A stretch of 64,000 nt of DNA from a virus (IMGVR_UViG_3300028833_000101:40703-104702); one strand, 5' to 3'. Positions 5,501 to 59,343 are shown, counted from the first letter of the stretch. The notes: generated from the letters alone by a model not told the origin. A program made the numbers and translations.

Positions 5501-7089
5501 GCTGAACTAATGATCATGAAGTTACAATTGGCGGCTTTAAAGTAGCTAAAACTACCTTATCTGCTGGCACACAGGGCTCAAATAGTAGTATTTATATGTC
5601 TACTGAAATGCCAGCAAGTAGTGATACTCCAACAACTTTATTTAGTATTGGCTCAGCTTTTAAAATTGACAGCTCAGGTAGTGCAAAACTTAATGGTACA
5701 CTGGATGCCTATGCAGGAAATATTGGGGAGTTTAGTATACATGGTGGCACCCTTGCCAATAGTAATGTTAAGTTAGGATGAAGCGGCATTCAAATGACCA
5801 ATGGCGGCAAACTATCTATTTCAAATAGTAATGATAGTAACACATTTACTATGGGTCTTACAAGAAAGGAGCAACCAGCGCTTTTATCTGAAGGTGATTT
5901 TTATCTAACTTCTAATAAGTATGATACTGGTTTTATGATATCCCCCACTGGAAGTGCTGGAAGTTCAACTATTGAATGCACAGTTAAAGTTACTGGTACT
6001 GCTTGGGGAGGCGGGTCATCAAATAAGGTTAAAATTACTGCTAATAAACCGTTTTTAAAAACAAAAACATTTACTATTAGCTATACTGGTTATGATTTTG
6101 GAACAGTAACACGTACTACATATCTAACGATATATGCTAATGCAACTGAAGGTGAAGTTAGTTTTGGTGGTTTATGGTACCTAACTTCTGCTACAGTAAG
6201 TGGGTATACTAGCGCAATTAATCGTGATGGTACTGCTACTTTTAACTTAACTCAATCATTTGAAACTGGCGCAACATGTTATGCATTGGGCAGCATAATT
6301 CCAAAGCCATACCCAAGACGTACTTTACATGTTTTTAAATCTGGAGAAGGTGAGATTCATATAACACCACCTGATTATGCAAGCCCAACATATGGCACAG
6401 ACTGTCATATGAGAGTTGGAAGATATGGTGAGGAGTTTGACGGATATTCTTGAGGCGATAGTAGCACTTGGGGCACCAACTCTATGTATATTACTAAACT
6501 AGATTGGTTTGGTGATACATCTTGAGTAGGTGCAACTGTTTGGTTAGCCGATAAAGGCTCCGGTTGGGGAAGTGAATGAGGAAATGTTTCAGCTGTCACA
6601 GAAGCTAATACTGTAACATATCTTGGTACATCTAGTAATAGATGAACATATATTTATGGAACAAATATAAACTGAACTAATGCTTATGGCACAAATGCTG
6701 CAACTATATCTGATCGTCGTGTAAAAACAAACATAGATTATGATATATCTAAGTATGATATACTTTTTGATAACTTAAAGCCAGTTAAATATAAATACAA
6801 AGATGGCGATTCAAATAGAACTCATCTTGGTCTTATTGCTCAAGATGTTGAACAAAGTATGCTAGAAAATGGTATATCTAGAAAAGACTTTGCAGGATTA
6901 ATTATTAGAGATGATACTGGACTAGGATTTGATAGTAAAACTGATACTATTAAAGATGAAGATAAAATAGAATATGGTATACGCTATGGTGAGTTGCATG
7001 CATTAGAAATTAGACAAATTCAAATGCTAAAACAAGAAATAGCTGAATTAAAAGCAGCATTAGCTGAATTACAAAATAAAAATGTATAA
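2524..7089 (+). CDS. Baseplate spike/central fibre protein: N-terminal gp5/gpV-like OB region, C-terminal peptidase S74 intramolecular chaperone (about 1521 aa)
   Basis: Six track ORFs share one frame and are separated by TGAs; N-terminal GDVVELAFDNNELDSPVVIG; C-terminal SDRRVKTNI...LKPVKYKY...HLGLIAQDVE plus coiled coil. Confidence 0.75.
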
Positions 7090-18849: not shown

Positions 18850-21702
18850 ATGACCGAATTTAAATATTGTGTATATTGTGAAGAAGAGCCAGCCATCTGT
18901 TTTGAAAGTGAGGCCGAAGCTATGAAATTTGCTCGTGAGGATACAAGTATGTATAATAGTGTTAGAGTTGAAAAATCTGAAATAGACGAAGATGGTGATG
19001 TCTTAAATACTGAAGTTCTTTGAACTGCTAGTGGTAATAATGTTCCAGAAAAAGAAATAGTTCCTGAGAATGAATTTGAGACAGAATTTCCAGAATCTGA
19101 TATTGCTAATATTGACACTTCAGATGATGTAGATTATGATGAACTTGCAAGACAGTATGCAGAAGACCCAGCTGATTGAATTGATGATAATAAATTAATT
19201 AAAGAAGCTGTTGATGTTCTAGAAGAAAATGAAGATGAAGTTGAATGCAAAGTTTGTTTTGAGCTTGGTCCTAAAGCTGAAATGAAAAAATTAGATATTG
19301 GTTATGTTTGTCCAAAATGTGCACAAGAATTACAATCACATCAAGGCACAAATTTAGATTTACTTGATAATGACCCATTTAGTCTAGATTATGAAGACCC
19401 AAGAGACTTTGATGAACCTGAAGAGGAAGAAGTCAAAGAAGAACCTGTCAATGGCACTGAGATGAGAAAACATGAAAAAGCAATCGAAGAAGAGCTAAAA
19501 GTTATTATAGATTTTAGTGAATATAAACCTTGGTCTGGTGCTGTTGATACTTATGAATTAATAAAAGATGCTGATAAATTAGATGAACTTGAAGCTTATC
19601 TTGAAGAATGTTACCCAGAGGGAGTTACCGCCGGAACAATTAATGATATTCTTTGGTTTGACAGTGAAGAAATTTTAAAATATCTTGGACTTGGCGACGT
19701 TGAAGAAGATGAAGAAGAAGTTGATGAATCATTAAATGAAGAAGAAACTTTTAAGCAAGGTTTTGATTCTTATAATGCTTATGGAGAAAAAGTCGAAGAA
19801 AATTTAGAAGAAAAAGTTGACTTACCAGCATTTGATAGTGATGTAAAAGTTGGTGATAAAATTAGAATTATTCATTTAGAAGGTGAAGATAATTCTTATG
19901 ATGGAAAAGAAGGTGAAGTCACTAATATCGATTCTATTGGACAACTTCATGGAACTTGAGGCGGATTAGCTGTTATCCCAGGTGTTGATCAATTTGAAGC
20001 TGTTATTGAAGAGCATGTTAATGATAGACCAGCTGATATTGAAAGCGACCAAGTTTTACAAGGTGCTGATAATGCAGTAGTTGATTGCGATGTTGCAAAA
20101 GTAATTGCACATAGTGAAGATGAAAAACCATTAGACTGCAAAATGGAAAAGCCTGCTTTAGAAGAACCATTAGCTGGTGAAGAAGTTAAACCTGACCTAG
20201 TTGAAGCTAAAAAAGATGATGAGTTACCTGTTGACCCAGAAGCTGCTAAACTTGAAGTTCATACAATGTTAAATGATTTGGTGGCAGATGAAATCGAAGC
20301 TATCAATGGTTATGAAGAAGCTAAGAAAGAAATTCTTGATACTCCAATTGCTCATAAAGATAATATTTTAGATACTATCGACCACGTTGAAGATGAAGAA
20401 AAAGAACATGTTGATGAATTAATTAGCGCAACAACTGAAATTCCATTTGATAAAGAAGAAGCTCCAGCTCCAGTAGTTGAAGAACCTGTAGTTAAAGAAG
20501 AACCACTTGATCAAGAATTTCCAGAAGTTGATGAAAACTTAGAAGAAGAAGTATCGGAAGATAAATTTGCTGAGGTAGAAGCCTATTTAAAAAATGCAGA
20601 TAGAGGCTCTATCGATTTTGAATGGGAGACCGATGAAGATATCTGTAATGGCTCAATTCTTTGAAATGAAAAGAAAGAAAGATTTGAAGCTGGCTTAAGC
20701 ATTTATCATGCCAGTGAAGATAATAATGCAGAATACCCAGAAATGCACACTGATGAAGAAGATGCATCTGCTAAAACTATTAAAGAGCTATATAAATTAT
20801 TAGTCGATGATTATGGTGAAGAATTTAAAAACGCTTTTGAAGATGCAATAAATCATAAAGAGTTAACTGAAGAAAAAGCCAAACCAGAAGGCAACAAAGT
20901 TCTTAGCTATAATAAAGCATTGGCTATCGCAAATTCTGAAGGAAAACCTGTTATTTATGGTTATACAAACACTTCTTATAATGGAAAATACTTTGAAGTA
21001 GACCCAATTGTTTGTAATAGTGTAAGTGATGAAACTAAAAAATTTAAACAACAATATAAGAGCGCTGGAACAGTCTATGTAGCATACCCAGGCAAAAGCT
21101 TTATTGAAAGCTTAAGAGAAGCTGCCAATGTAGACTATGTTGAATATATGCATTCTTATTGCAATGCTCTTGAACCACATATGGACGAGCTTAAAAAAAT
21201 TGAAGATGTCGAAGAACTTAAAAAAGCAATCTTAGATATTGTCAATAAAGACCCAGATGTTAATACTACTGAAAAGAAAAATAAATTTGTCTGGCTAATT
21301 AAGAATAAAAAATGGGGTTCTACTAAGAGTATTATGAAATACCTAGAAAAAGCAATGAATAAAGCTAAAGGTATTGAAGTTAAAGTTGATGACAATGGTG
21401 AGCTTATTAAAGAAGATATTGAAGAAGCTGACCCAAAAGAAACACAATTTGTTTTCACACCAGAAGAACAAGCAGAATATAATTGTGACGAAGATGGTAA
21501 CTGTGAAGATGGCTATGACCAATTATGCCATTGTGGTTGGTGTGGTGAAGTATTCCCTACAAGTGAAATGCGCCATGAAGTTGACTTTGGCTGAATTTGT
21601 TCTAGATGTGAAGACGAATTAAAATCACATGGTGGTCCACTTACATTTATTGAAGAAGCAGTCGAAAAGAAAGACCCTAAAGATGCTACTAAAGAAGCTT
21701 AA
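18850..21702 (+). CDS. Large acidic multidomain protein (two CxxC..CxxC Zn fingers, DUF4314-like and ferritin-like segments); probable head-internal protein (about 950 aa)
   Basis: AAGGAG + ATG at 18850; three track ORFs joined through TGA; IDSIGQLHGT(W)GGLAVIPGVD; DEIEAINGY...EEKEH; GCTAAATTA upstream. Confidence 0.7.
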
Positions 21703-22310: not shown

Positions 22311-22463
22311 ATATTGTATATTATAACGAGCGAACATAAAGCATTAAGGAGATAAGCCCCAGCTTAATACCTAATGCGAACTCATTTTAATAGAAGTGCT
22401 CAAGAGCCTGATAGAACTGGTGGAGAGTGCTGAGCAACTAAATAGAATTAGGAGATATTAATA

Positions 22464-22940
22464 ATGAAGTATTACTCAGAAGTACTCGATAAAGTTTTCG
22501 AGACAGAAAAAGAATTAAAAGCTGCTGAAAAAGCAGATGCCGATGAAAAGGCAAAAAAAGAAGAAGCTAAAGCTTTAGTTAAGAAAGAATCAACAGAAGT
22601 TGAAGACTCCTTCAAAGCAAGAAATGCTGCAAGACATGCTTATAACGAAAAACTCGTTGAGGCAAGAAAAATCTACAATGAAGCTTTAAGAAAAGCTAAA
22701 GATGAATTTGAGGCTAGCTTAAAAGAATCAACAGAAGCTTTAGAAAAAGCTGAAGCTGATTATGACACTAGACTTAAAGCTTTCCAAAAAGCCCATCCAG
22801 AAGGTTATCACATTACGCTTAAAGATGGTGATAATGTTGTAACTTATACAAACAATCCAGGCGATTATCAAGTTAGAAATATAGAGAAAGAATTTGACGA
22901 TATGTTAAATATGTTCTCTAACTTACTTAGACGCTGGTAA
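22464..22940 (+). CDS. Coiled-coil hypothetical protein
   Basis: AGGAG RBS; Lys/Glu/Ala-rich helical sequence. Confidence 0.75.
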   Translation: MKYYSEVLDKVFETEKELKAAEKADADEKAKKEEAKALVKKESTEVEDSFKARNAARHAYNEKLVEARKIYNEALRKAKDEFEASLKESTEALEKAEADYDTRLKAFQKAHPEGYHITLKDGDNVVTYTNNPGDYQVRNIEKEFDDMLNMFSNLLRRW

Positions 22941-22976
22941 TTAGCTTCTAAATTCTGGGGCTTAACTAAATAAAAT

Positions 22977-23152
22977 TATTATTCGCCCGAGCAGTACGAC
23001 TTATTGCCAAAGTATCCGTGTTCGTAATGTTAACTAAAATAGCGCGAGAAACAGCAATAAGCAAAAAGGGTAGAAACTATACTTATTTCTAAAGACTTAT
23101 TTATTCTAAACAAAGAGAATAATTGGCTGCGCTATTAGTTAGTTCGAATAAA
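22977..23152 (+). ncRNA. Candidate multi-stem pseudoknotted RNA
   Basis: Six complementary pairings seen by eye (see findings); no ORF; strand inferred from context. Confidence 0.5.
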
Positions 23153-23175
23153 TATAAAAATATTGTATAATATTA

Positions 23176-23288
23176 TGTGAGCGTAATAGCTCATGAAGTT
23201 CATAGTAGCGCTAAGGTAAAACTTAGCATCCTCCCTTCAACAGCAGCTTATCACAATTCCTCCTGGTATGTTGCTGTTTTTCTTTTTT
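23176..23288 (+). ncRNA. Candidate sRNA with two CCUCC (anti-SD) motifs
   Basis: GTATAAT promoter at 23165, two hairpins, terminator stem aacagcagc/gttgctgtt plus U-tract. Confidence 0.6.
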
Positions 23289-23300
23289 GCTAAATTAAAT

Positions 23301-23355
23301 GGTCGGTCAAATAGCGCCATCACCTTCGCCACAGCTAAGTTGACCGGCTTTTTTA
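23301..23355 (+). ncRNA. Candidate late sRNA hairpin with AUCACCUU loop
   Basis: GCTAAATTA at 23289, stem gtcggtcaa/ttgaccggc, U-tract. Confidence 0.5.
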
Positions 23356-23396
23356 TTACTTAATTAAATTGCTAAATTATACGATAGGCAAAAATT

Positions 23397-23783
23397 ATGT
23401 TAAGGTGAAAAGATATTCAAGTATATGCAGATGAGGCAATTACGCGCTTTACAAATATGTATAGAAACATTAGCCTTATTGGGGCCGGGCTTGCTCCGAA
23501 TAGCCCAGATAAGTATTTAATTTATCTTGATGATAAAAAATTAGCTGGAACCTTTAAAGTAATTATTACTGAAGAATTTTTAAATGGCCAAACACAGACA
23601 ATTGATTTAGCTGCAAAGATTCCAAGTAGTTTTCCAGAAGAGAAAAAAGTTGTATTAAGAATTGCTTATGCTATTTTAGTTGCTTGACAACGACACTTTA
23701 TTGAAGCCTATAAACAAGTTGCACCAAATAAGTATGATGTAACTTTTGCTAATGCTAAAAATTGATATGATGGTTTAAAATAA
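23397..23783 (+). CDS. LRxAY-family protein 1
   Basis: Code-4 ORF with 3 TGA; KVVLRIAYAIL. Confidence 0.7.
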
Positions 23784-23784
23784 T

Positions 23785-24126
23785 ATGGCAAGATATAGTT
23801 TACAAGATGCACGTAGATATATAGTTCAAGCTTTTATGAGACTTAATAAAGCTCGTGGCTTAAATTTAGCTTTACTTGACTTAGAATATGCAGACTTAAT
23901 GGGTTGGGATTTTATTAAAGCTCATATGTATGATAAGACAACACAAACTAAATTTGATAGTATGCTTAATGAATTTATATTTACCAGAGAAGATACTATG
24001 ACAAATTTAGATACACAAGCTAAAATACTTGGAAAAAATCTAAATGAAAGAGAAAGAATTATTTTAAGAGTTGCTTACACTATTTGAAGAGATTGGAAGG
24101 AAACTAGAAATGTTGACGTGGACTAG
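23785..24126 (+). CDS. LRxAY-family protein 2
   Basis: AFMRLNKARGLNL...IILRVAYTI(W). Confidence 0.75.
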
Positions 24127-24439
24127 CCAAGACTTAGATGATTTCTGTGAACAAGCCATTAAGCTTTTAAATAAGAAAAAACAATTACAATTAGAATTAA
24201 GAAATTGTTGGCTTTATTCAAATAGCTCTGGCAGTAATTTTCATATTATCTATCATAATAACTTTTTAGATAAAGATTTTCATTTATGTAGAAATGGTAA
24301 AATTTTGCAAGAATTATCACCAGACACCGATAGAGCAGCTGGCTTAAAAGAAGTAGATGATATTAAGTTAAAAATAGTTTTACGTATTGCATATTTTATT
24401 TATAAAGACTGTCAAAGAGAAATGAAAGAGGATAAATAA
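24110..24439 (+). CDS. LRxAY-family protein 3
   Basis: AIKLLNKKKQLQL...IVLRIAYFIY. Confidence 0.75.
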   Translation: MLTWTSQDLDDFCEQAIKLLNKKKQLQLELRNCWLYSNSSGSNFHIIYHNNFLDKDFHLCRNGKILQELSPDTDRAAGLKEVDDIKLKIVLRIAYFIYKDCQREMKEDK

Positions 24440-24966
24440 TGGCTAGAGAAGCATCATTTATGTTTAAAGACCTTGAAGAGCTTGCTCAAATTAAAGCTGG
24501 TGTTTTAAGCTACCTTCAAAGAGATATTGACAAACTATTGAAGACAAAAGACTTAGATGCTGAATTTGTAAATATTGCGACACCTGGAAAATCATGAGGA
24601 AGAACTTGATTACTCTTTAAAGTTTATTATACTAAATTCAAAGATGCAGATGACATGTTAGGAAACTATGAACATGTTTTCTTTGCTTACCCTATTCAAC
24701 AAAACTTATTTACAAGAGATCCCGATTTAATGGACATCTTAGATAGACAAGCTAACATTGCAGGCAGACAAGATAAGTTAAGCGATATTGATTTAGTTAA
24801 AGTTAGAATTCTTTATCATCTATTTTATATTATTAAATGTATTCAAGAAGACAATTTACCTGCAACTATTAAACTTCCTACTAAAAAATATATTGTTGTT
24901 GAATATGCAGATGCTGGAAATTTATTCTATGAGCTAAAAGACCATTTACCTGGAGGCTTTAATTAA
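24439..24966 (+). CDS. LRxAY-family protein 4 (divergent)
   Basis: TAATG coupling; 2 TGA; IDKLLKTKDL...VKVRILYHLFY. Confidence 0.65.
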
Positions 24967-24967
24967 A

Positions 24968-25312
24968 ATGACAATAACTGAAATTAAAGACCTGTGACCA
25001 GAATGACGAATTGAATTTGTCTGTGACTATGCTTGTGAAAAACTAAGAAATATTAAAGGTATTAATTTTGTATATCTTAGAAATGAAGGCTGACAAGAGT
25101 GAGTAGATGGGACTGAGTTCTATATACCAATTATTTTTGAGTATAAAACAAATGGTACATTCTTAAAACTTGAAATTCATCAAGATTTATTTGTAGAAGA
25201 ATTTTTAGACTTTGATAAAAAAACTGGTGCTAATAGATTACCAGACATTAGAGATAAAGTAATAGTAAGACTTGCTTGACACTTAAAAGAACGTTTTGAA
25301 GGAAGAAGCTAA
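24968..25312 (+). CDS. LRxAY-family protein 5 (missed by the ORF track; 5 TGA)
   Basis: ACEKLRNIKGINF...VIVRLA(W)HL. Confidence 0.7.
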
Positions 25313-25313
25313 T

Positions 25314-26063
25314 ATGGGATTGCAACTTGGAATAAATGAATCTTCTAATATTATTCTACAAGCTATTAAAGCAACAGGTGAAAACTTTAATAGAGATTTT
25401 CATCATGTCTATTCTACCCCTGGACATCAAGGCTTTTATACTGAAATAGATGATTTTACTTTAGAGATGAAGCTTCATACAATTTCTAAAGACTATAACA
25501 AAGATGATCATGTTTTTAATTTAAATATTCCATATGAGTATTTTAATGATGATCAACTCCCTGGTGATACTCAGCTTGGAATAAAACTTACAGATCATAC
25601 TGAAGTAAAAGCTGAAATAAGATGTATGGGTCTAATCGCAAAAACATATGAAGCTTGGATTAAAGACCATGAAGTTTTTACTATAAATGATTTAAGAAAA
25701 ATTATTAATGATGCTTTAGATAGACTAAGAAAAATTAAAAAGTTAGATTTAATGGTTCGTGGAGATAAAGGTGAATTAGCTGAAAAGTATATTCAAATCT
25801 ACTTGACAGAAAATCATATTCCAGCAACTGAAGGAAGTGCTCTTGATAGATTTTTTCCAGTTGAATTACATATCTATGACTACTATACTGATGTAGGAAA
25901 TCATATAGTTGATGGCTCAATTGGTGAAGCTAATCTTCGTGGAAAAGATAGAAAAGAAATTTGTCTACTAAGAGTTGCATATACTATTTATTCAGAGTGT
26001 ATGGGCTGGCTTCATAATAAGTGACCAAAAGTTTATAATAATTATTTAAATGGTAAATTCTAA
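25314..26063 (+). CDS. LRxAY-family protein 6 (probably two tandem domains)
   Basis: ALDRLRKIKKLDL...CLLRVAYTIY; the N-terminal half looks like a degenerate copy. Confidence 0.7.
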
Positions 26064-26374
26064 TGACTAAAAATGAAAAAGAACAAGTTGTATTAGAGGC
26101 AATTCAACTACTTATAAAAAATAAAGGCCTTAAAATAAAAGTAAATAAGATGTGAGTTGACACTGGCTATTTTAATGTTGAGCTAGAATATACTATTCAT
26201 AATATAACTAAGCTGCAAGACTTTGGTTTTGTTGCTCAATGATTTGATCCAAATTATTTTGAAATATCTTGAGTTAGAGGTTTACAGGTTCCAGCAAATG
26301 CAACTGATTATCAAAAAGTATTATTAAAACTTGCATATTATTTTTATAAATGATATAAGGAGAAGTGTCAATAA
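26063..26374 (+). CDS. LRxAY-family protein 7 (missed by the ORF track; 4 TGA)
   Basis: AIQLLIKNKGLKI...VLLKLAYYFY; TAATG coupling at both ends. Confidence 0.72.
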
Positions 26375-26712
26375 TGGATCAAGTAGAAATTGATGGAATG
26401 CTCCAAGGAGCAAAAGAGTATGATGCCGAAAAATATTTAGCAGAAGCAGCTAAATTACTTTCACGTAATAAAAAATTAAATGTTGAAATAGATGACTGTG
26501 AGTGATACGTTAGTGATATAACTAATCGACTTGTATTAAAAATTTGATATTCAGTTAATAGTCATGATGTATTGCTAAAGGTTGTTGAGTCTCTGTTTAA
26601 AGACTACCAAAGACCTGCTGATGCTGAAATTGGGATTAAACCAGGAATGGAAATGAAACACAAAATTATCCTAAGACTTGCCTATGTATTGTATAAACAC
26701 AGAGAAGACTAA
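26374..26712 (+). CDS. LRxAY-family protein 8 (missed by the ORF track; 2 TGA)
   Basis: AAKLLSRNKKLNV...IILRLAYVLY. Confidence 0.72.
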
Positions 26713-26756
26713 AAATCTTCTTTTTTTATCTTCAATAGTTGTATAATATAATAGGT

Positions 26757-27287
26757 ATGACTACAACAGAACTAATTGAAAAAGCAGTAGAAAACTTAAA
26801 TAGAGTTAAGCAATTAAACCTAAGCATAACAAGCATATTATCGCAACTTGGTAATGATAATAATTTTTCTGTATCAATATTAGATAATGAAAGCGACTGC
26901 ACATTTGATACTATTATTGATGAAAATATATCTACTCAACAACTATTGCCAGATGACCATACAAAGCTATCCCCAGATAATATTATAATGTTAAGAATAG
27001 CTAAGCATATATTTGAAGCATATAAAAAGTTTAAAAACAATGTTGTCAATGCTAGCCTAACACTAAATAATAATCCAACTATTAGTTCAGTAAAAATTGG
27101 TCAAGCTACTTATGACATAGGTGTTAATGGTAGAAGCTTAACTGCAACGTTTGATGAAGTAGATGAGTTAAAAAATAAGCTTGATAATTTACAAATTGAA
27201 AAAGATCACTTAGAACAAGAATTACAGAGCACAAAAGCAATAGTTGATTTACTGTTTCAACGATGTCAAGATAAAGGGATTTTATAA
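26757..27287 (+). CDS. LRxAY-family protein 9 with C-terminal coiled coil
   Basis: AVENLNRVKQLNL...IMLRIAKHIF. Confidence 0.72.
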   Translation: MTTTELIEKAVENLNRVKQLNLSITSILSQLGNDNNFSVSILDNESDCTFDTIIDENISTQQLLPDDHTKLSPDNIIMLRIAKHIFEAYKKFKNNVVNASLTLNNNPTISSVKIGQATYDIGVNGRSLTATFDEVDELKNKLDNLQIEKDHLEQELQSTKAIVDLLFQRCQDKGIL

Positions 27288-44977: not shown

Positions 44978-45197
44978 ATTAAAAGGTATCTTAGAGATAT
45001 CTTTTTTATAACTCTTAAAAAATAATCTGCTAAATTATACTGAGAAAAAGCTAAGGCAATTGCTATTGGCTTCTTTTTTAATAATTTAATAAAAAACATT
45101 TGCTATAATTAATTGAAGGTTGTTAAAAAGGCCGAAATAGGTTTTTGGTCAAATATCCTTCTTTTTTTATACTCTTTTGCGCCGTATAATATAATGT

Positions 45198-47260: not shown

Positions 47261-47548
47261 AAATAAAAGCGACGACTCAGAGCCTGGAAAAGAGAGAGGT
47301 GATGGCTCGTTGTGTGTCGTCGCCGGGACCGAAGCCCCTGAAAGGAGGTAATTGTCATATAAGGAGATTTGACTCATTAAACTGCCCGAAACCTTACTGA
47401 CTTAGTTTTATCATGCGGTTTAAGTACGTATCGTTAGTTAGTCTTTTTGACACTCTATTGATTACCTATCGTCTATTGATTATCTATCGTTATACGTATC
47501 GTTCTGAGGCGGTCCTTTACATTATCGGCAGTTTTTCGGTCGCCTCAT
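47261..47548 (-). ncRNA. Candidate ~290-nt structured RNA with three anti-SD motifs
   Basis: Minus-strand TTGTATAATATAG promoter (47550-47562), 5' stem ugaggcg/cgccuca, cUUCGg tetraloop, terminator gcgacgac/gucgucgc plus U-tract. Confidence 0.65.
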
Positions 47549-48301
47549 ACTATATTATACAATTCAAATCTAAATTTTAACAACTTTTTTTAAATTTTTG
47601 TAATTTCAACTTCGTGCGTGTGCATACGTGGCGGCGCGCCAGTATTCTTAATCCTTAGAAGAATACCGTGCGTGGCCATGTGCGTGCGTATATACTAAAG
47701 CTTTCAAATCAGGGCGATTTCAAATGCTATGAAACTCAGGCAATTTCAAGTGCAGGTTAATAACAACTTATATATGATCTATCTATCTAACGATAGATCA
47801 TATATAAGCTATTTTGAAGCAGCTGTAGGTTAGCCCTGTAAAAAAGTTAAAAAAACTATTTACAACTGTTTACTTTTGTGCTATAATATTGTTATAATGG
47901 GGGGTGTTTTTTTAAAAAAAATAAAAAACCCTGAAATCGGGATATTTTAGACTGTATAATATAATAGGGAATAAAATGAAATTGGAACAATTTCATTTAT
48001 GTGTGCGCAAGCACACACGTGTAATACTAAAAAAATTCAACCTAAATAAAATTCCAAATCAGGGTGTTTTTAATAATTTAATAAATTAATAATTTAATGA
48101 TTTAATGTTTTAATAAATTATTAACACATAAATTATATGTACATGAATTATCTATATTAATTCTTAGCTAATATTTTATAGCTATAGTAGCATAGCTTAT
48201 AATATATAGCTTATATATAAGCTTTTGGCGCCCGCACACATATGTACACGTGTACAGTAAGTACAGAATTAGAGCAAGTTCAAATCAAGGAGATTTCAGA
48301 T

Positions 48302-58443: not shown

Positions 58444-59343
58444 GTGGCAAGTCAAACATTTAACAACTTCAAGAATTACGCAAATCAATTAGAGAAAGAA
58501 CTTGGTATTAAATATGATGCTAAGCCTTATAAAGATACTATCAGGGTTATGCTTGATGGTTTTTGCAAAGCAATGGATGAAGGCGATGAACATCTTAAGA
58601 ACTTATATATCAGTGGTTTAATCTTACGTCATTGGGATAAAGTAAAGAAACTTGCAGATAGTTGCCCTGGCATCGATCTTAAAGGCGAAGAGTTCGTCGA
58701 CTGGGTTTACGAAGCAATTATGCTTGCTTGTGAATATCGTAAATGGCAAAAAGACGAAAGTGTCAATGCTCAACAATGTATCAATCAATGTATTGAAACT
58801 ATCAGGGTTAGACACTACTATGAATATAACTTAGACAAACACAAAGCGAACTACAATACTGTCTCTTTAGAAACCCCTGTTGGCGATGGAGACGATAATG
58901 GTGTTCAAAAAACTTTGATGGATACTATGCATGATGAGAATGCGGAAGAAGCTGCTAGAGTAGCAGAAAGTAATAACGCTGCTCGACACATCGTTCAGAT
59001 GTTTATCAACAAAAACAGAATTGTCGAAGCAATTATCATGGACATCATTGCTTTTGGTGATACTGAAAAAATTACTAAACACATTAAACGTGGCATTGAC
59101 GAAAATGGTGAGGCTTACAAGTATATAACTTACACACGTGAGTTCTGGAAGTTCAAAGCAGTCCAACTTCTTTCAAACTTGCCAGAAGACTACCAACAAT
59201 ACTTCCTTGAAAACTATTTAGTTAATACAGCAGCATTAGATGCAGCTTTAAACGTGCTTAGAAAGGCCAATAACAACAAATTATACCGTGAGTTAGATAA
59301 AAGCCTATCTGCAGCAAAAGTAATCCTACAAGCGTCTATGTGA
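58444..59343 (+). CDS. Putative phage-encoded sigma70-family factor
   Basis: LILRHWDKVKKLA...EEFVDWVYEAIMLA (region 2-like); TVSLETPVGDGDD (region 3-like); AAAGGAGG + GTG. Confidence 0.6.
   Translation: MASQTFNNFKNYANQLEKELGIKYDAKPYKDTIRVMLDGFCKAMDEGDEHLKNLYISGLILRHWDKVKKLADSCPGIDLKGEEFVDWVYEAIMLACEYRKWQKDESVNAQQCINQCIETIRVRHYYEYNLDKHKANYNTVSLETPVGDGDDNGVQKTLMDTMHDENAEEAARVAESNNAARHIVQMFINKNRIVEAIIMDIIAFGDTEKITKHIKRGIDENGEAYKYITYTREFWKFKAVQLLSNLPEDYQQYFLENYLVNTAALDAALNVLRKANNNKLYRELDKSLSAAKVILQASM

Follow-up and report, generated by a model that had tools for sequence, protein, structure and literature searches.

Sequence evidence for a conserved, structured small RNA gene with exposed anti-Shine-Dalgarno-like motifs in a large uncultured phage that reads TGA as tryptophan

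The stretch of DNA analyzed here (the window) is 64,000 nucleotides long and corresponds to bases 40703-104702 of a 104,702-bp IMG/VR virus record with a CheckV completeness of 46%. Its G+C content is about 31%, and the large ORFs lie almost all on the + strand. Otherwise split reading frames are joined by in-frame TGA, as in the 950-aa ORF at 18850-21702, which holds five TGAs; TGA is thus a tryptophan codon in some of the phage's genes. Such recoding has been described for gut phages (bioRxiv 10.1101/2021.08.26.457843), and the source of the window is a large uncultured gut or rumen phage in which TGA encodes tryptophan. The translation signals of the phage are strongly based on Shine-Dalgarno (SD) sites, with GGAGG and AGGAG enriched approximately 35-40-fold ahead of start codons. 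Together with early promoters of the form TTTACA-N17-TATAAT, these signals suggest a Bacillota-like host.

The locus occupies the 456 nt that separate a 158-aa gene (22464-22940) from the gene that opens a paralogous family (start 23397, genetic code 4). A sequence-only reading had placed two tandem small RNA genes with anti-SD loops, units 1 and 2, in this gap. The elements it named were all found in the sequence at the positions stated. The features of the locus are as follows.

22464-22940, + strand: 158-aa coiled-coil gene, TGA-free; an ORF that provides the syntenic anchor of unit 1
23165-23171, + strand: -10 element GTATAAT of unit 1, within TTGTATAATATTA; no conserved -35 element
23175-23287, + strand: unit 1, putative small RNA of about 110 nt; covariance-model matches, single copy, covarying pairs
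23177-23194, + strand: hairpin 1 of unit 1, 5'-terminal stem-loop with a UGAGC/GCUCA core
23198-23207, + strand: single-stranded GUUCAUAGUA, conserved
23210-23227, + strand: hairpin 2 of unit 1, GCUAAG/CUUAGC
23228-23238, + strand: single-stranded CU-rich motif 1, AUCCUCCCUUC, an anti-SD-like linker
23239-23288, + strand: intrinsic terminator with two-tier stem (hairpin 23239-23278), CU-rich loop and U run
23257-23264, + strand: CU-rich motif 2, UUCCUCCU, in the terminator loop
23289-23297, + strand: late-type promoter motif GCTAAATTA of unit 2
23301-23354, + strand: unit 2 hairpin with a 10-bp and a 4-bp stem and an 18-nt loop, followed by a U run
23301-23310 and 23340-23349, + strand: the two sides of the long stem of unit 2
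23316-23325, + strand: loop 10-mer GCCAUCACCU of unit 2
23371-23379, + strand: second GCTAAATTA late promoter, which serves the paralog-family gene starting at 23397

The 158-aa protein had no match in a PHROG search, and 414 homologs of it were found. Its gene is served by a TTGTATATTATAA promoter of its own, with a leader of about 150 nt (22311-22463), which is 93% identical in relative L002 and largely kept in L011 (protein identity 49%). In six relatives, UAAGCCCCAG in this leader is exactly complementary to CUGGGGCUUA (22955-22964) just past the stop codon. This pair may serve as a clamp between the 5' and 3' UTRs or as a processing site; as neither of its sides varies, it gives no covariation evidence. 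An insert of about 175 nt (22977-23152) between the stop codon of the 158-aa gene and the unit 1 promoter holds a long-range stem, AACTAAAATAGCGC / GCGCTATTAGTT, and the z score of its overall fold is only -0.7. L002 has no such insert, L003 a different one and L014 a part of it. On the far side of the gap, the paralogous small genes at 23397-27287 share an LRIAY-like C-terminal motif, and most of them need TGA to be read as Trp for read-through.

Unit 1 is predicted to fold with a free energy of -33.5 kcal/mol (z = -4.8), a value as good as which was reached by none of 200 shuffled sequences. The hexamer TCCTCC occurs only three times on the + strand of the 64-kb window, twice inside unit 1 at a distance of 29 nt. 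Judged by its sequence signals, unit 1 would be an independent transcription unit with its own promoter (eight of nine sequences) and its own intrinsic terminator (hairpin and U run in all copies). At least two C-rich, SD-complementary motifs occupy unpaired sites, the linker UCCUCC being exact in seven of the nine sequences and the terminator-loop motif present in all nine. A search for tRNAs at the locus was negative. Rfam, searched over the whole window at gathering thresholds (LhrC, RsaE and all other families), gave no match, and a relaxed search of 22900-23460 gave best sub-threshold scores of 13-18 bits to unrelated eukaryotic families.

The first two relatives in IMG/VR were located via the 158-aa protein at 81-82% identity, and unit 1 is almost unchanged in both. 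A covariance model built on three sequences (the window and these two relatives) detected unit 1 directly behind 158-aa homologs with 72%, 53%, 49% and 45% protein identity, among the matches listed. A three-motif pattern scan of IMG/VR yielded two more sequence types on five further contigs, which contain the motifs by construction and include the 221-kb record mentioned below. The family is thereby sampled from at least nine distinct sequences; these nine score 30-141 bits with the covariance model. Each of five phage records, including one of 221 kb rated 95% complete, has exactly one copy. In all relatives reached through the protein, unit 1 is located directly 3' of the 158-aa homolog, with 45 to about 230 nt of unrelated DNA from the stop codon to the unit 1 promoter. 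Relative L016 (protein identity 33%) has only a plain terminator at this site and represents the edge of the family. The phage records of INPHARED gave no match to a 561-nt query in blastn at 'distant' sensitivity. The strict three-motif pattern matched ten times in 185,579 prokaryote genomes; none of these matches was confirmed by the model, and no prophage or host copy was obtained. Based on this result and the missing Rfam match, unit 1 is a new RNA family. A conserved 18-mer of hairpin 2 was rejected as a probe for IMG/VR, as four of its six matches were coincidences in coding sequence.

The common plan of unit 1 begins with GTATAATA, followed by 6-7 nt, the 5' hairpin, an unpaired (G)UUCAUAGU and the second hairpin, and continues with an unpaired AUCCUCCCUU(U)C, the two-tier terminator hairpin with UUCCUCCU in its loop, and the U run. 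The unpaired stretches, the terminator and the U run are common to all nine distinct sequences. GTATAATA is invariant and at a fixed distance 5' of hairpin 1 in eight of nine homologs, embedded in flanking DNA that cannot be aligned. L014 departs from the plan in that hairpin 2 and a promoter at the usual distance are missing and the linker reads UCCUCUA; L003 departs in its linker, UCCUUCC. The linker is UCCUCCC in the other homologs (7/9), and its probability of being unpaired is 0.67-0.98 in all nine. UUCCUCCU is invariant (9/9, including six homologs found by synteny without use of the motif), with a probability of being unpaired of 0.98-1.00. The (C/A)AUAGU core of GUUCAUAGUA is likewise found in 9/9, with mean values of 0.58-0.95. 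The exposed CCUCC motifs are thus conserved, and the idea of an anti-SD RNA withstands the refuting condition that the sequence-only reading had set for these motifs.

The stems differ among the relatives, with the pairing kept. Hairpin 1 occurs as GUGAGC/GCUCAU, UGAGGUU/AACCUCA, GGAAC/GUUCC and AGGAAU/AUUCCU, and hairpin 2 as six helices, GCUAAG/CUUAGC, GCGGA/UCCGC, UUGAGG/CCUCAA, GGAUGC/GCAUCC, GCUGC/GCAGC and ACACAC/GUGUGU. Changes on both sides were counted in 20 of 27 pairs, on a model-fitted alignment that leans towards the model; 93.5% of the cells are paired, and the terminator stem covaries too. With slid partners 31-62% of the cells are paired, and none of 500 shuffles reached the observed values. 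Because the pair counts lean on the model-fitted alignment, the folds of the individual homologs represent independent support for the structure: the same three hairpins were obtained in eight of nine, the exception being L014, which is without hairpin 2 and whose 5' hairpin was not recovered. RNAalifold on a sequence-only MAFFT alignment recovered the terminator stem alone, the hairpin sequences having diverged too far for alignment. The proposal that unit 1 is an independent small RNA gene is upheld by the conserved fold, the covariation and the promoter and terminator signals of its own, and by these sequence criteria unit 1 appears to be a real gene for a conserved, structured non-coding RNA.

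The absence of a credible ORF from unit 1, also claimed before, holds: a 38-aa frame on the + strand is broken by indels in relatives, and the frame on the minus strand varies. A type I toxin-antitoxin system, in which the minus strand would encode a hydrophobic peptide (MNFMSYYAHIILYNIFIFIRTN) and unit 1 would be its antisense RNA, is extremely improbable. The minus strand of the window does carry GGGAGGA followed by ATG and a 22-codon hydrophobic frame, but this SD site is at least 26 nt away from the ATG, and no minus-strand promoter or terminator is conserved. The changes in hairpin 1 compensate RNA pairing, not coding. Among the relatives the mini-ORF opposite unit 1 is 2 to 37 codons long and only its first residues are shared; it was rejected as a toxin-like gene, as neither its length nor its sequence is conserved.

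The strict synteny with the 158-aa gene in every relative is also what would be expected if unit 1 were mainly the 3' end of the 158-aa mRNA, a stabilizing 3'-UTR module or an element folding back on the ribosome-binding site (RBS) of its own message, with no independent role in trans. A precedent is icaR of Staphylococcus aureus, the 3' end of which folds back on its own RBS. In L002, about 45 nt with no convincing terminator extend from the stop codon to the unit 1 promoter, so that transcripts reading through from the gene would stop at the terminator of unit 1. The loop of unit 1 can form 6-8 bp with the UUAGGAGA RBS of the 158-aa gene. However, the leader and RBS of this neighboring gene pair with unit 1 no better than background (0.06-0.43 of random genome windows pair at least as well), and the loop flanks and the RBS showed no covariation with each other. 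The perfectly conserved GTATAATA at a fixed distance in 8/9 homologs argues for a start of its own, and the unrelated DNA of variable length is tolerated ahead of it. This explanation is unlikely as the main role of unit 1; roles in the 3'-UTR and in trans are mutually compatible.

Three classes of upstream motifs were found in the genome. The first, TTTACA-N17-(G)TTATAATA, stands ahead of TGA-free genes and is read as the class of early promoters. The second is a -10-only motif, tTGTATAATAtaa (TGTATAATA type), without a -35 element and also ahead of TGA-free genes; unit 1 belongs to it, as does the 158-aa gene with the slightly altered form noted above. The third, late class, tttGCTAAATTA(w)(w)(y)GA, stands ahead of TGA-containing structural genes; its consensus was drawn from about 15 intergenic sites preceding TGA-containing genes. 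TGCTAAATTA occurs at eight sites in the window, seven of them on the + strand, compared with 0.87 expected. The unit 2 promoter at 23289 fits the late consensus tttGCTAAATTA(w)(w)(y)G(A). The statement that the two units are under different promoters is therefore correct at the level of promoter classes, late for unit 2 and -10-only TGTATAATA for unit 1, and the suggested expression at successive stages would fit the sequence. TATAAT elements at 7083, 18407 and 45664 end only 5-8 nt before an ATG (7097, 18423 and 45680), so that their mRNAs would have little or no leader. At 47.7-48.9 kb of the window, several start codons are closely preceded by TTCAAATCAGGGNGATTTC, which may be a further class of promoter or translation signal.

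Early and late genes also differ in SD type. GAGGU(AA) is found in 16 of 46 early and none of 63 late genes, often within AGAGAGGUAA in the early ones, and AGGAG or GGAGG in 35 of the 63 late genes.

If transcription started at the GG past its promoter, unit 2 would give an RNA of about 55 nt that consists of little besides the hairpin. The fold has a z score of -2.9, and three of 200 shuffled sequences were as good. Between the window and L002, 67 of 68 positions of unit 2 are identical, compared with 80% of third codon positions in the neighboring gene; unit 2 is therefore either constrained or recently exchanged in this sub-lineage. Unit 2 and its loop AUCACCU are kept in the nearest relative only and are elsewhere altered, paired, replaced or lost. 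L014 has a homologous-looking hairpin (AUCACCCUUC and GCUAA retained, stems changed) in which UCACC is paired with GGUGG, and its first promoter copy is degenerate (CCAAATTA). In L003 the hairpin is decayed and its 3' half lost, with both promoter copies kept. L015 has a different hairpin at this site, which carries AGGUGG. L011, L012, L019 and L021 are without unit 2 and have an early-type promoter directly behind unit 1. The GCTAAATTA promoter of the downstream gene is also present in L002, L003, L014 and L015. Downstream of the unit 1 homolog in L011, L012, L019 and L021, a canonical TTTACA-N17-TATAAT promoter is followed by an unrelated gene; the late paralog block of the window is therefore a lineage-specific insertion.

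According to these data, unit 2 is probably not regulatory: its hairpin would back up termination of unit 1 and of the upstream operon, its GCTAAATTA would be a second copy of the late promoter of the downstream genes, and its AUCACCU would be incidental. The decayed hairpin with intact promoters in L003, the reverse situation with paired UCACC in L014, the different hairpin in L015 and the absence of unit 2 from four relatives all point in this direction. So do tandem late promoters, and another late promoter with a plain hairpin, that occur elsewhere without anti-SD loops (45029; genome coordinates 19214 and 19301, which are upstream of the window). At 45029-45085 a late-consensus GCTAAATTA is followed at once by a hairpin and U run (z = -2.5) with no anti-SD loop motif, and a hybrid-looking TTTGCTATAATT lies past this hairpin. 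Against a mere terminator stands the identity of 67/68 positions with L002, which includes the loop, compared with about 80% at neutral sites. The loop 10-mer also matches the RNA at 47.3 kb exactly in both genomes (the window and the close relative G001), and the chance of one further exact copy of a GC-rich 10-mer in the window is a few percent, as estimated from base composition. Predicted pairing of unit 2 with early-type SD regions is weakly preferred (median -7.8 vs -5.5 kcal/mol, p = 0.005). Unit 2 is selected only in the closest relatives and is at most a lineage-specific small late RNA; its role as an anti-SD RNA is doubtful. The grouping of units 1 and 2 as one family is not sustained, as they share no homology.

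The sharing of the 10-mer with an RNA at 47.3 kb was confirmed in part. GCCATCACCT has, besides the copy on the + strand in unit 2, one other exact copy in the window at 47297-47306 on the minus strand, and is common to the two RNAs only on a minus-strand reading of the one at 47.3 kb. G001 carries both copies as well. The 47.3-kb RNA resembles units 1 and 2 in its exposed anti-SD-like stretches; its ACAAUU(A)CCUCCU recurs in the loop region of unit 1, and its exact GCCAUCACCU in the loop of unit 2. It differs in lying on the other strand (47261-47562, minus) and in its much larger size. A local similarity search between the 47.3-kb RNA and unit 2 gave nothing beyond the 10-mer, and 17 of 300 shuffles reached the score of unit 2. 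A second motif in the 47.3-kb RNA fits the early-leader consensus AGAGAGGU (p = 1.7e-4), in contrast to unit 1 with its preference for AGGAGG. The predicted pairing of its motif GAGCCAUCACCUCUCUCUUUUCC has a median of -8.5 kcal/mol with early and -7.0 kcal/mol with late SD regions (p = 1.7e-4), and predicted duplexes of -12 kcal/mol or better are formed with 30% of early and 2% of late genes. The RNA also contains UAUGACAAUUACCUCCU, which resembles the loop region of unit 1.

The loop of unit 1 is predicted to form duplexes of at least -12 kcal/mol strength with the SD regions of 10 of 63 late genes (16%) but only one of 46 early genes (2%); the medians of the early and late genes do not differ, and the contrast is confined to this strong tail. 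The best predicted partners are sites of the AGGAGG(A) type. The suggestion that unit 1 shuts off early phage translation is not supported: UCCUCC is a poor partner for GAGGU(AA), on which the early genes mostly rely. Since the strong duplexes are biased to late genes and GAGGU(AA) is early, unit 1 is unsuited to silencing early phage messages. The generic CCUCC of unit 1 would fit a large number of RBSs. On the coding strand of the five phage records, perfect extended complements (AAGGGAGGA, CAGGAGGAA) hardly occur; there are two such sites, and they lie ahead of unrelated genes. A CopraRNA-like target comparison, which the sequence-only reading had proposed, ranked no ortholog group high everywhere in the five records (reciprocal best hits); the top comparative target in G000 and G001 (window position 58444) is not kept in G004 or G005. 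The combination of GUUCAUAGUA and AUCCUCCCUUC was considered as antisense to a single ideal SD-spacer-AUG site and treated as chance: one early gene (start 56065) has UACUAUGAAC at its start codon, and L003 has AAU in place of CAU with no matching SD partner.

The two exposed copies of CCUCC are similar to the anti-SD sequence itself, and unit 1 could instead mimic the 3' tail of 16S rRNA as a decoy for a tail-recognizing protein or nuclease, such as an initiation factor, an rRNA-processing enzyme or an rRNA-cleaving toxin, without pairing to mRNA. We know of no documented decoy RNAs of this kind. In the same genome, the minus-strand RNA at 47.3 kb has ACCUCCUUUC-like and AUCACCUCU-like stretches. 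The canonical bacterial 16S 3' end is ACCUCCUUU. What is shared with this tail, which may not be that of the host, is only CCUCC with flanking U/C; unit 2 has AUCACCU. The similarity of unit 1 extends over only 5-6 nt, its flanks (UCCUCCCUU, UUCCUCCUG) are unlike the canonical tail, and the locus shows no link to a candidate binding protein. In contrast, small RNAs that base-pair through such motifs are well documented (PMC4132741), and the decoy function is improbable.

Taken as a whole, the locus is rather likely to comprise a trans-acting regulatory RNA of about 110 nt that acts on ribosome-binding sites (unit 1) and a late-promoter-to-terminator unit (unit 2). Transcription of unit 1 would start a few bases past the -10-only TGTATAATA promoter and end at its own intrinsic terminator. 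As this type of promoter otherwise precedes TGA-free genes, expression before the late code switch, or independent of it, is suggested. The transcript would fold into a protective 5' hairpin, a second hairpin and the terminator hairpin, with GUUCAUAGUA, AUCCUCCCUU(U)C and the terminator-loop UUCCUCCU left as three conserved single-stranded stretches. The two CU-rich stretches are complementary to strong SD sites of the AAGGGAGGA and AGGAGGAA type. Unit 1 most likely pairs with the RBSs of selected mRNAs and would thus block binding of the 30S subunit. As the phage genes yielded no conserved target, the mRNAs of the host are the likelier targets, followed by a subset of late phage messages.

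A wider scheme, in which the phage has a promoter-staged set of anti-SD RNAs tuned to SD 'dialects' that silences classes of messages along with the code switch, is speculative and improbable. Unit 1 would then address AGGAGG(A) in host and late messages, and the 47.3-kb RNA and, more weakly, unit 2 would address the (AGAGA)GAGGU(AA) leaders of early messages. Bacteriophage T4 RegB removes early messages by cutting at GGAG, and such a set, if true, would be its RNA-based counterpart.

Unit 1 is found in a TGA-recoded jumbo phage whose early and late genes have different types of RBS and different genetic codes. If it acts on host RBSs, it would represent a simple RNA route by which phages with Bacillota-like signals shut off translation of the host; with phage messages as its targets, it would bring a further level of control to the timing of the code switch. 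With the covariance model and the nine sequences, members of the family can be annotated in metagenomes and sought in metatranscriptomes.

Few small RNAs of lytic phages are understood, and to our knowledge none has been described for large TGA-reassigning gut or rumen phages. The phage small RNAs described are mostly those of E. coli phages and prophages, dependent on Hfq and equipped with gene-specific seeds. Unit 1 differs from them in its generic anti-SD seeds and its origin from an uncultured phage with Bacillota-like signals, and would be similar in being phage-borne and base-pairing, with presumed action on mRNA during infection. Phage-encoded small RNAs are an emerging topic (PMC12197685; 10.1101/2024.10.31.621285).

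Small RNAs with anti-SD seeds, the kind to which unit 1 would belong, are already well known in Bacillota. LhrC of Listeria monocytogenes has three CU-rich motifs, placed in a loop, in the single-stranded part and in the loop of the terminator, and each of them binds the lapB SD region (PMC4132741). LhrC and unit 1 are similar in their length of about 100 nt and in having a promoter and terminator of their own (PMC4132741), and both carry redundant CU-rich motifs (UCCC-type in LhrC) in the stretch between hairpins and in the terminator loop, those of LhrC pairing with target SD sites. Unlike LhrC, which is chromosomal and multicopy, unit 1 is phage-borne and single-copy; the two have no sequence homology, and unit 1 has two CU-rich sites of the form UCCUCC compared with three of the form CUCCC then UUUU. 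RsaE/RoxS, the hairpins of RNAIII, and SprD are Bacillota small RNAs with C-rich seeds that block RBSs (PMC4132741; RoxS, PMC5419742). They resemble unit 1 in their exposed C-rich motifs complementary to GGAGG-type SD sites, the 5' hairpin and the intrinsic terminator. Unit 1 does not match their Rfam models, and they are host-encoded regulators of metabolism or virulence, whereas unit 1 comes from a lytic-type jumbo phage with TGA as tryptophan. By analogy, the two redundant seeds of unit 1 would parallel those of LhrC, RsaE/RoxS, RNAIII and SprD.
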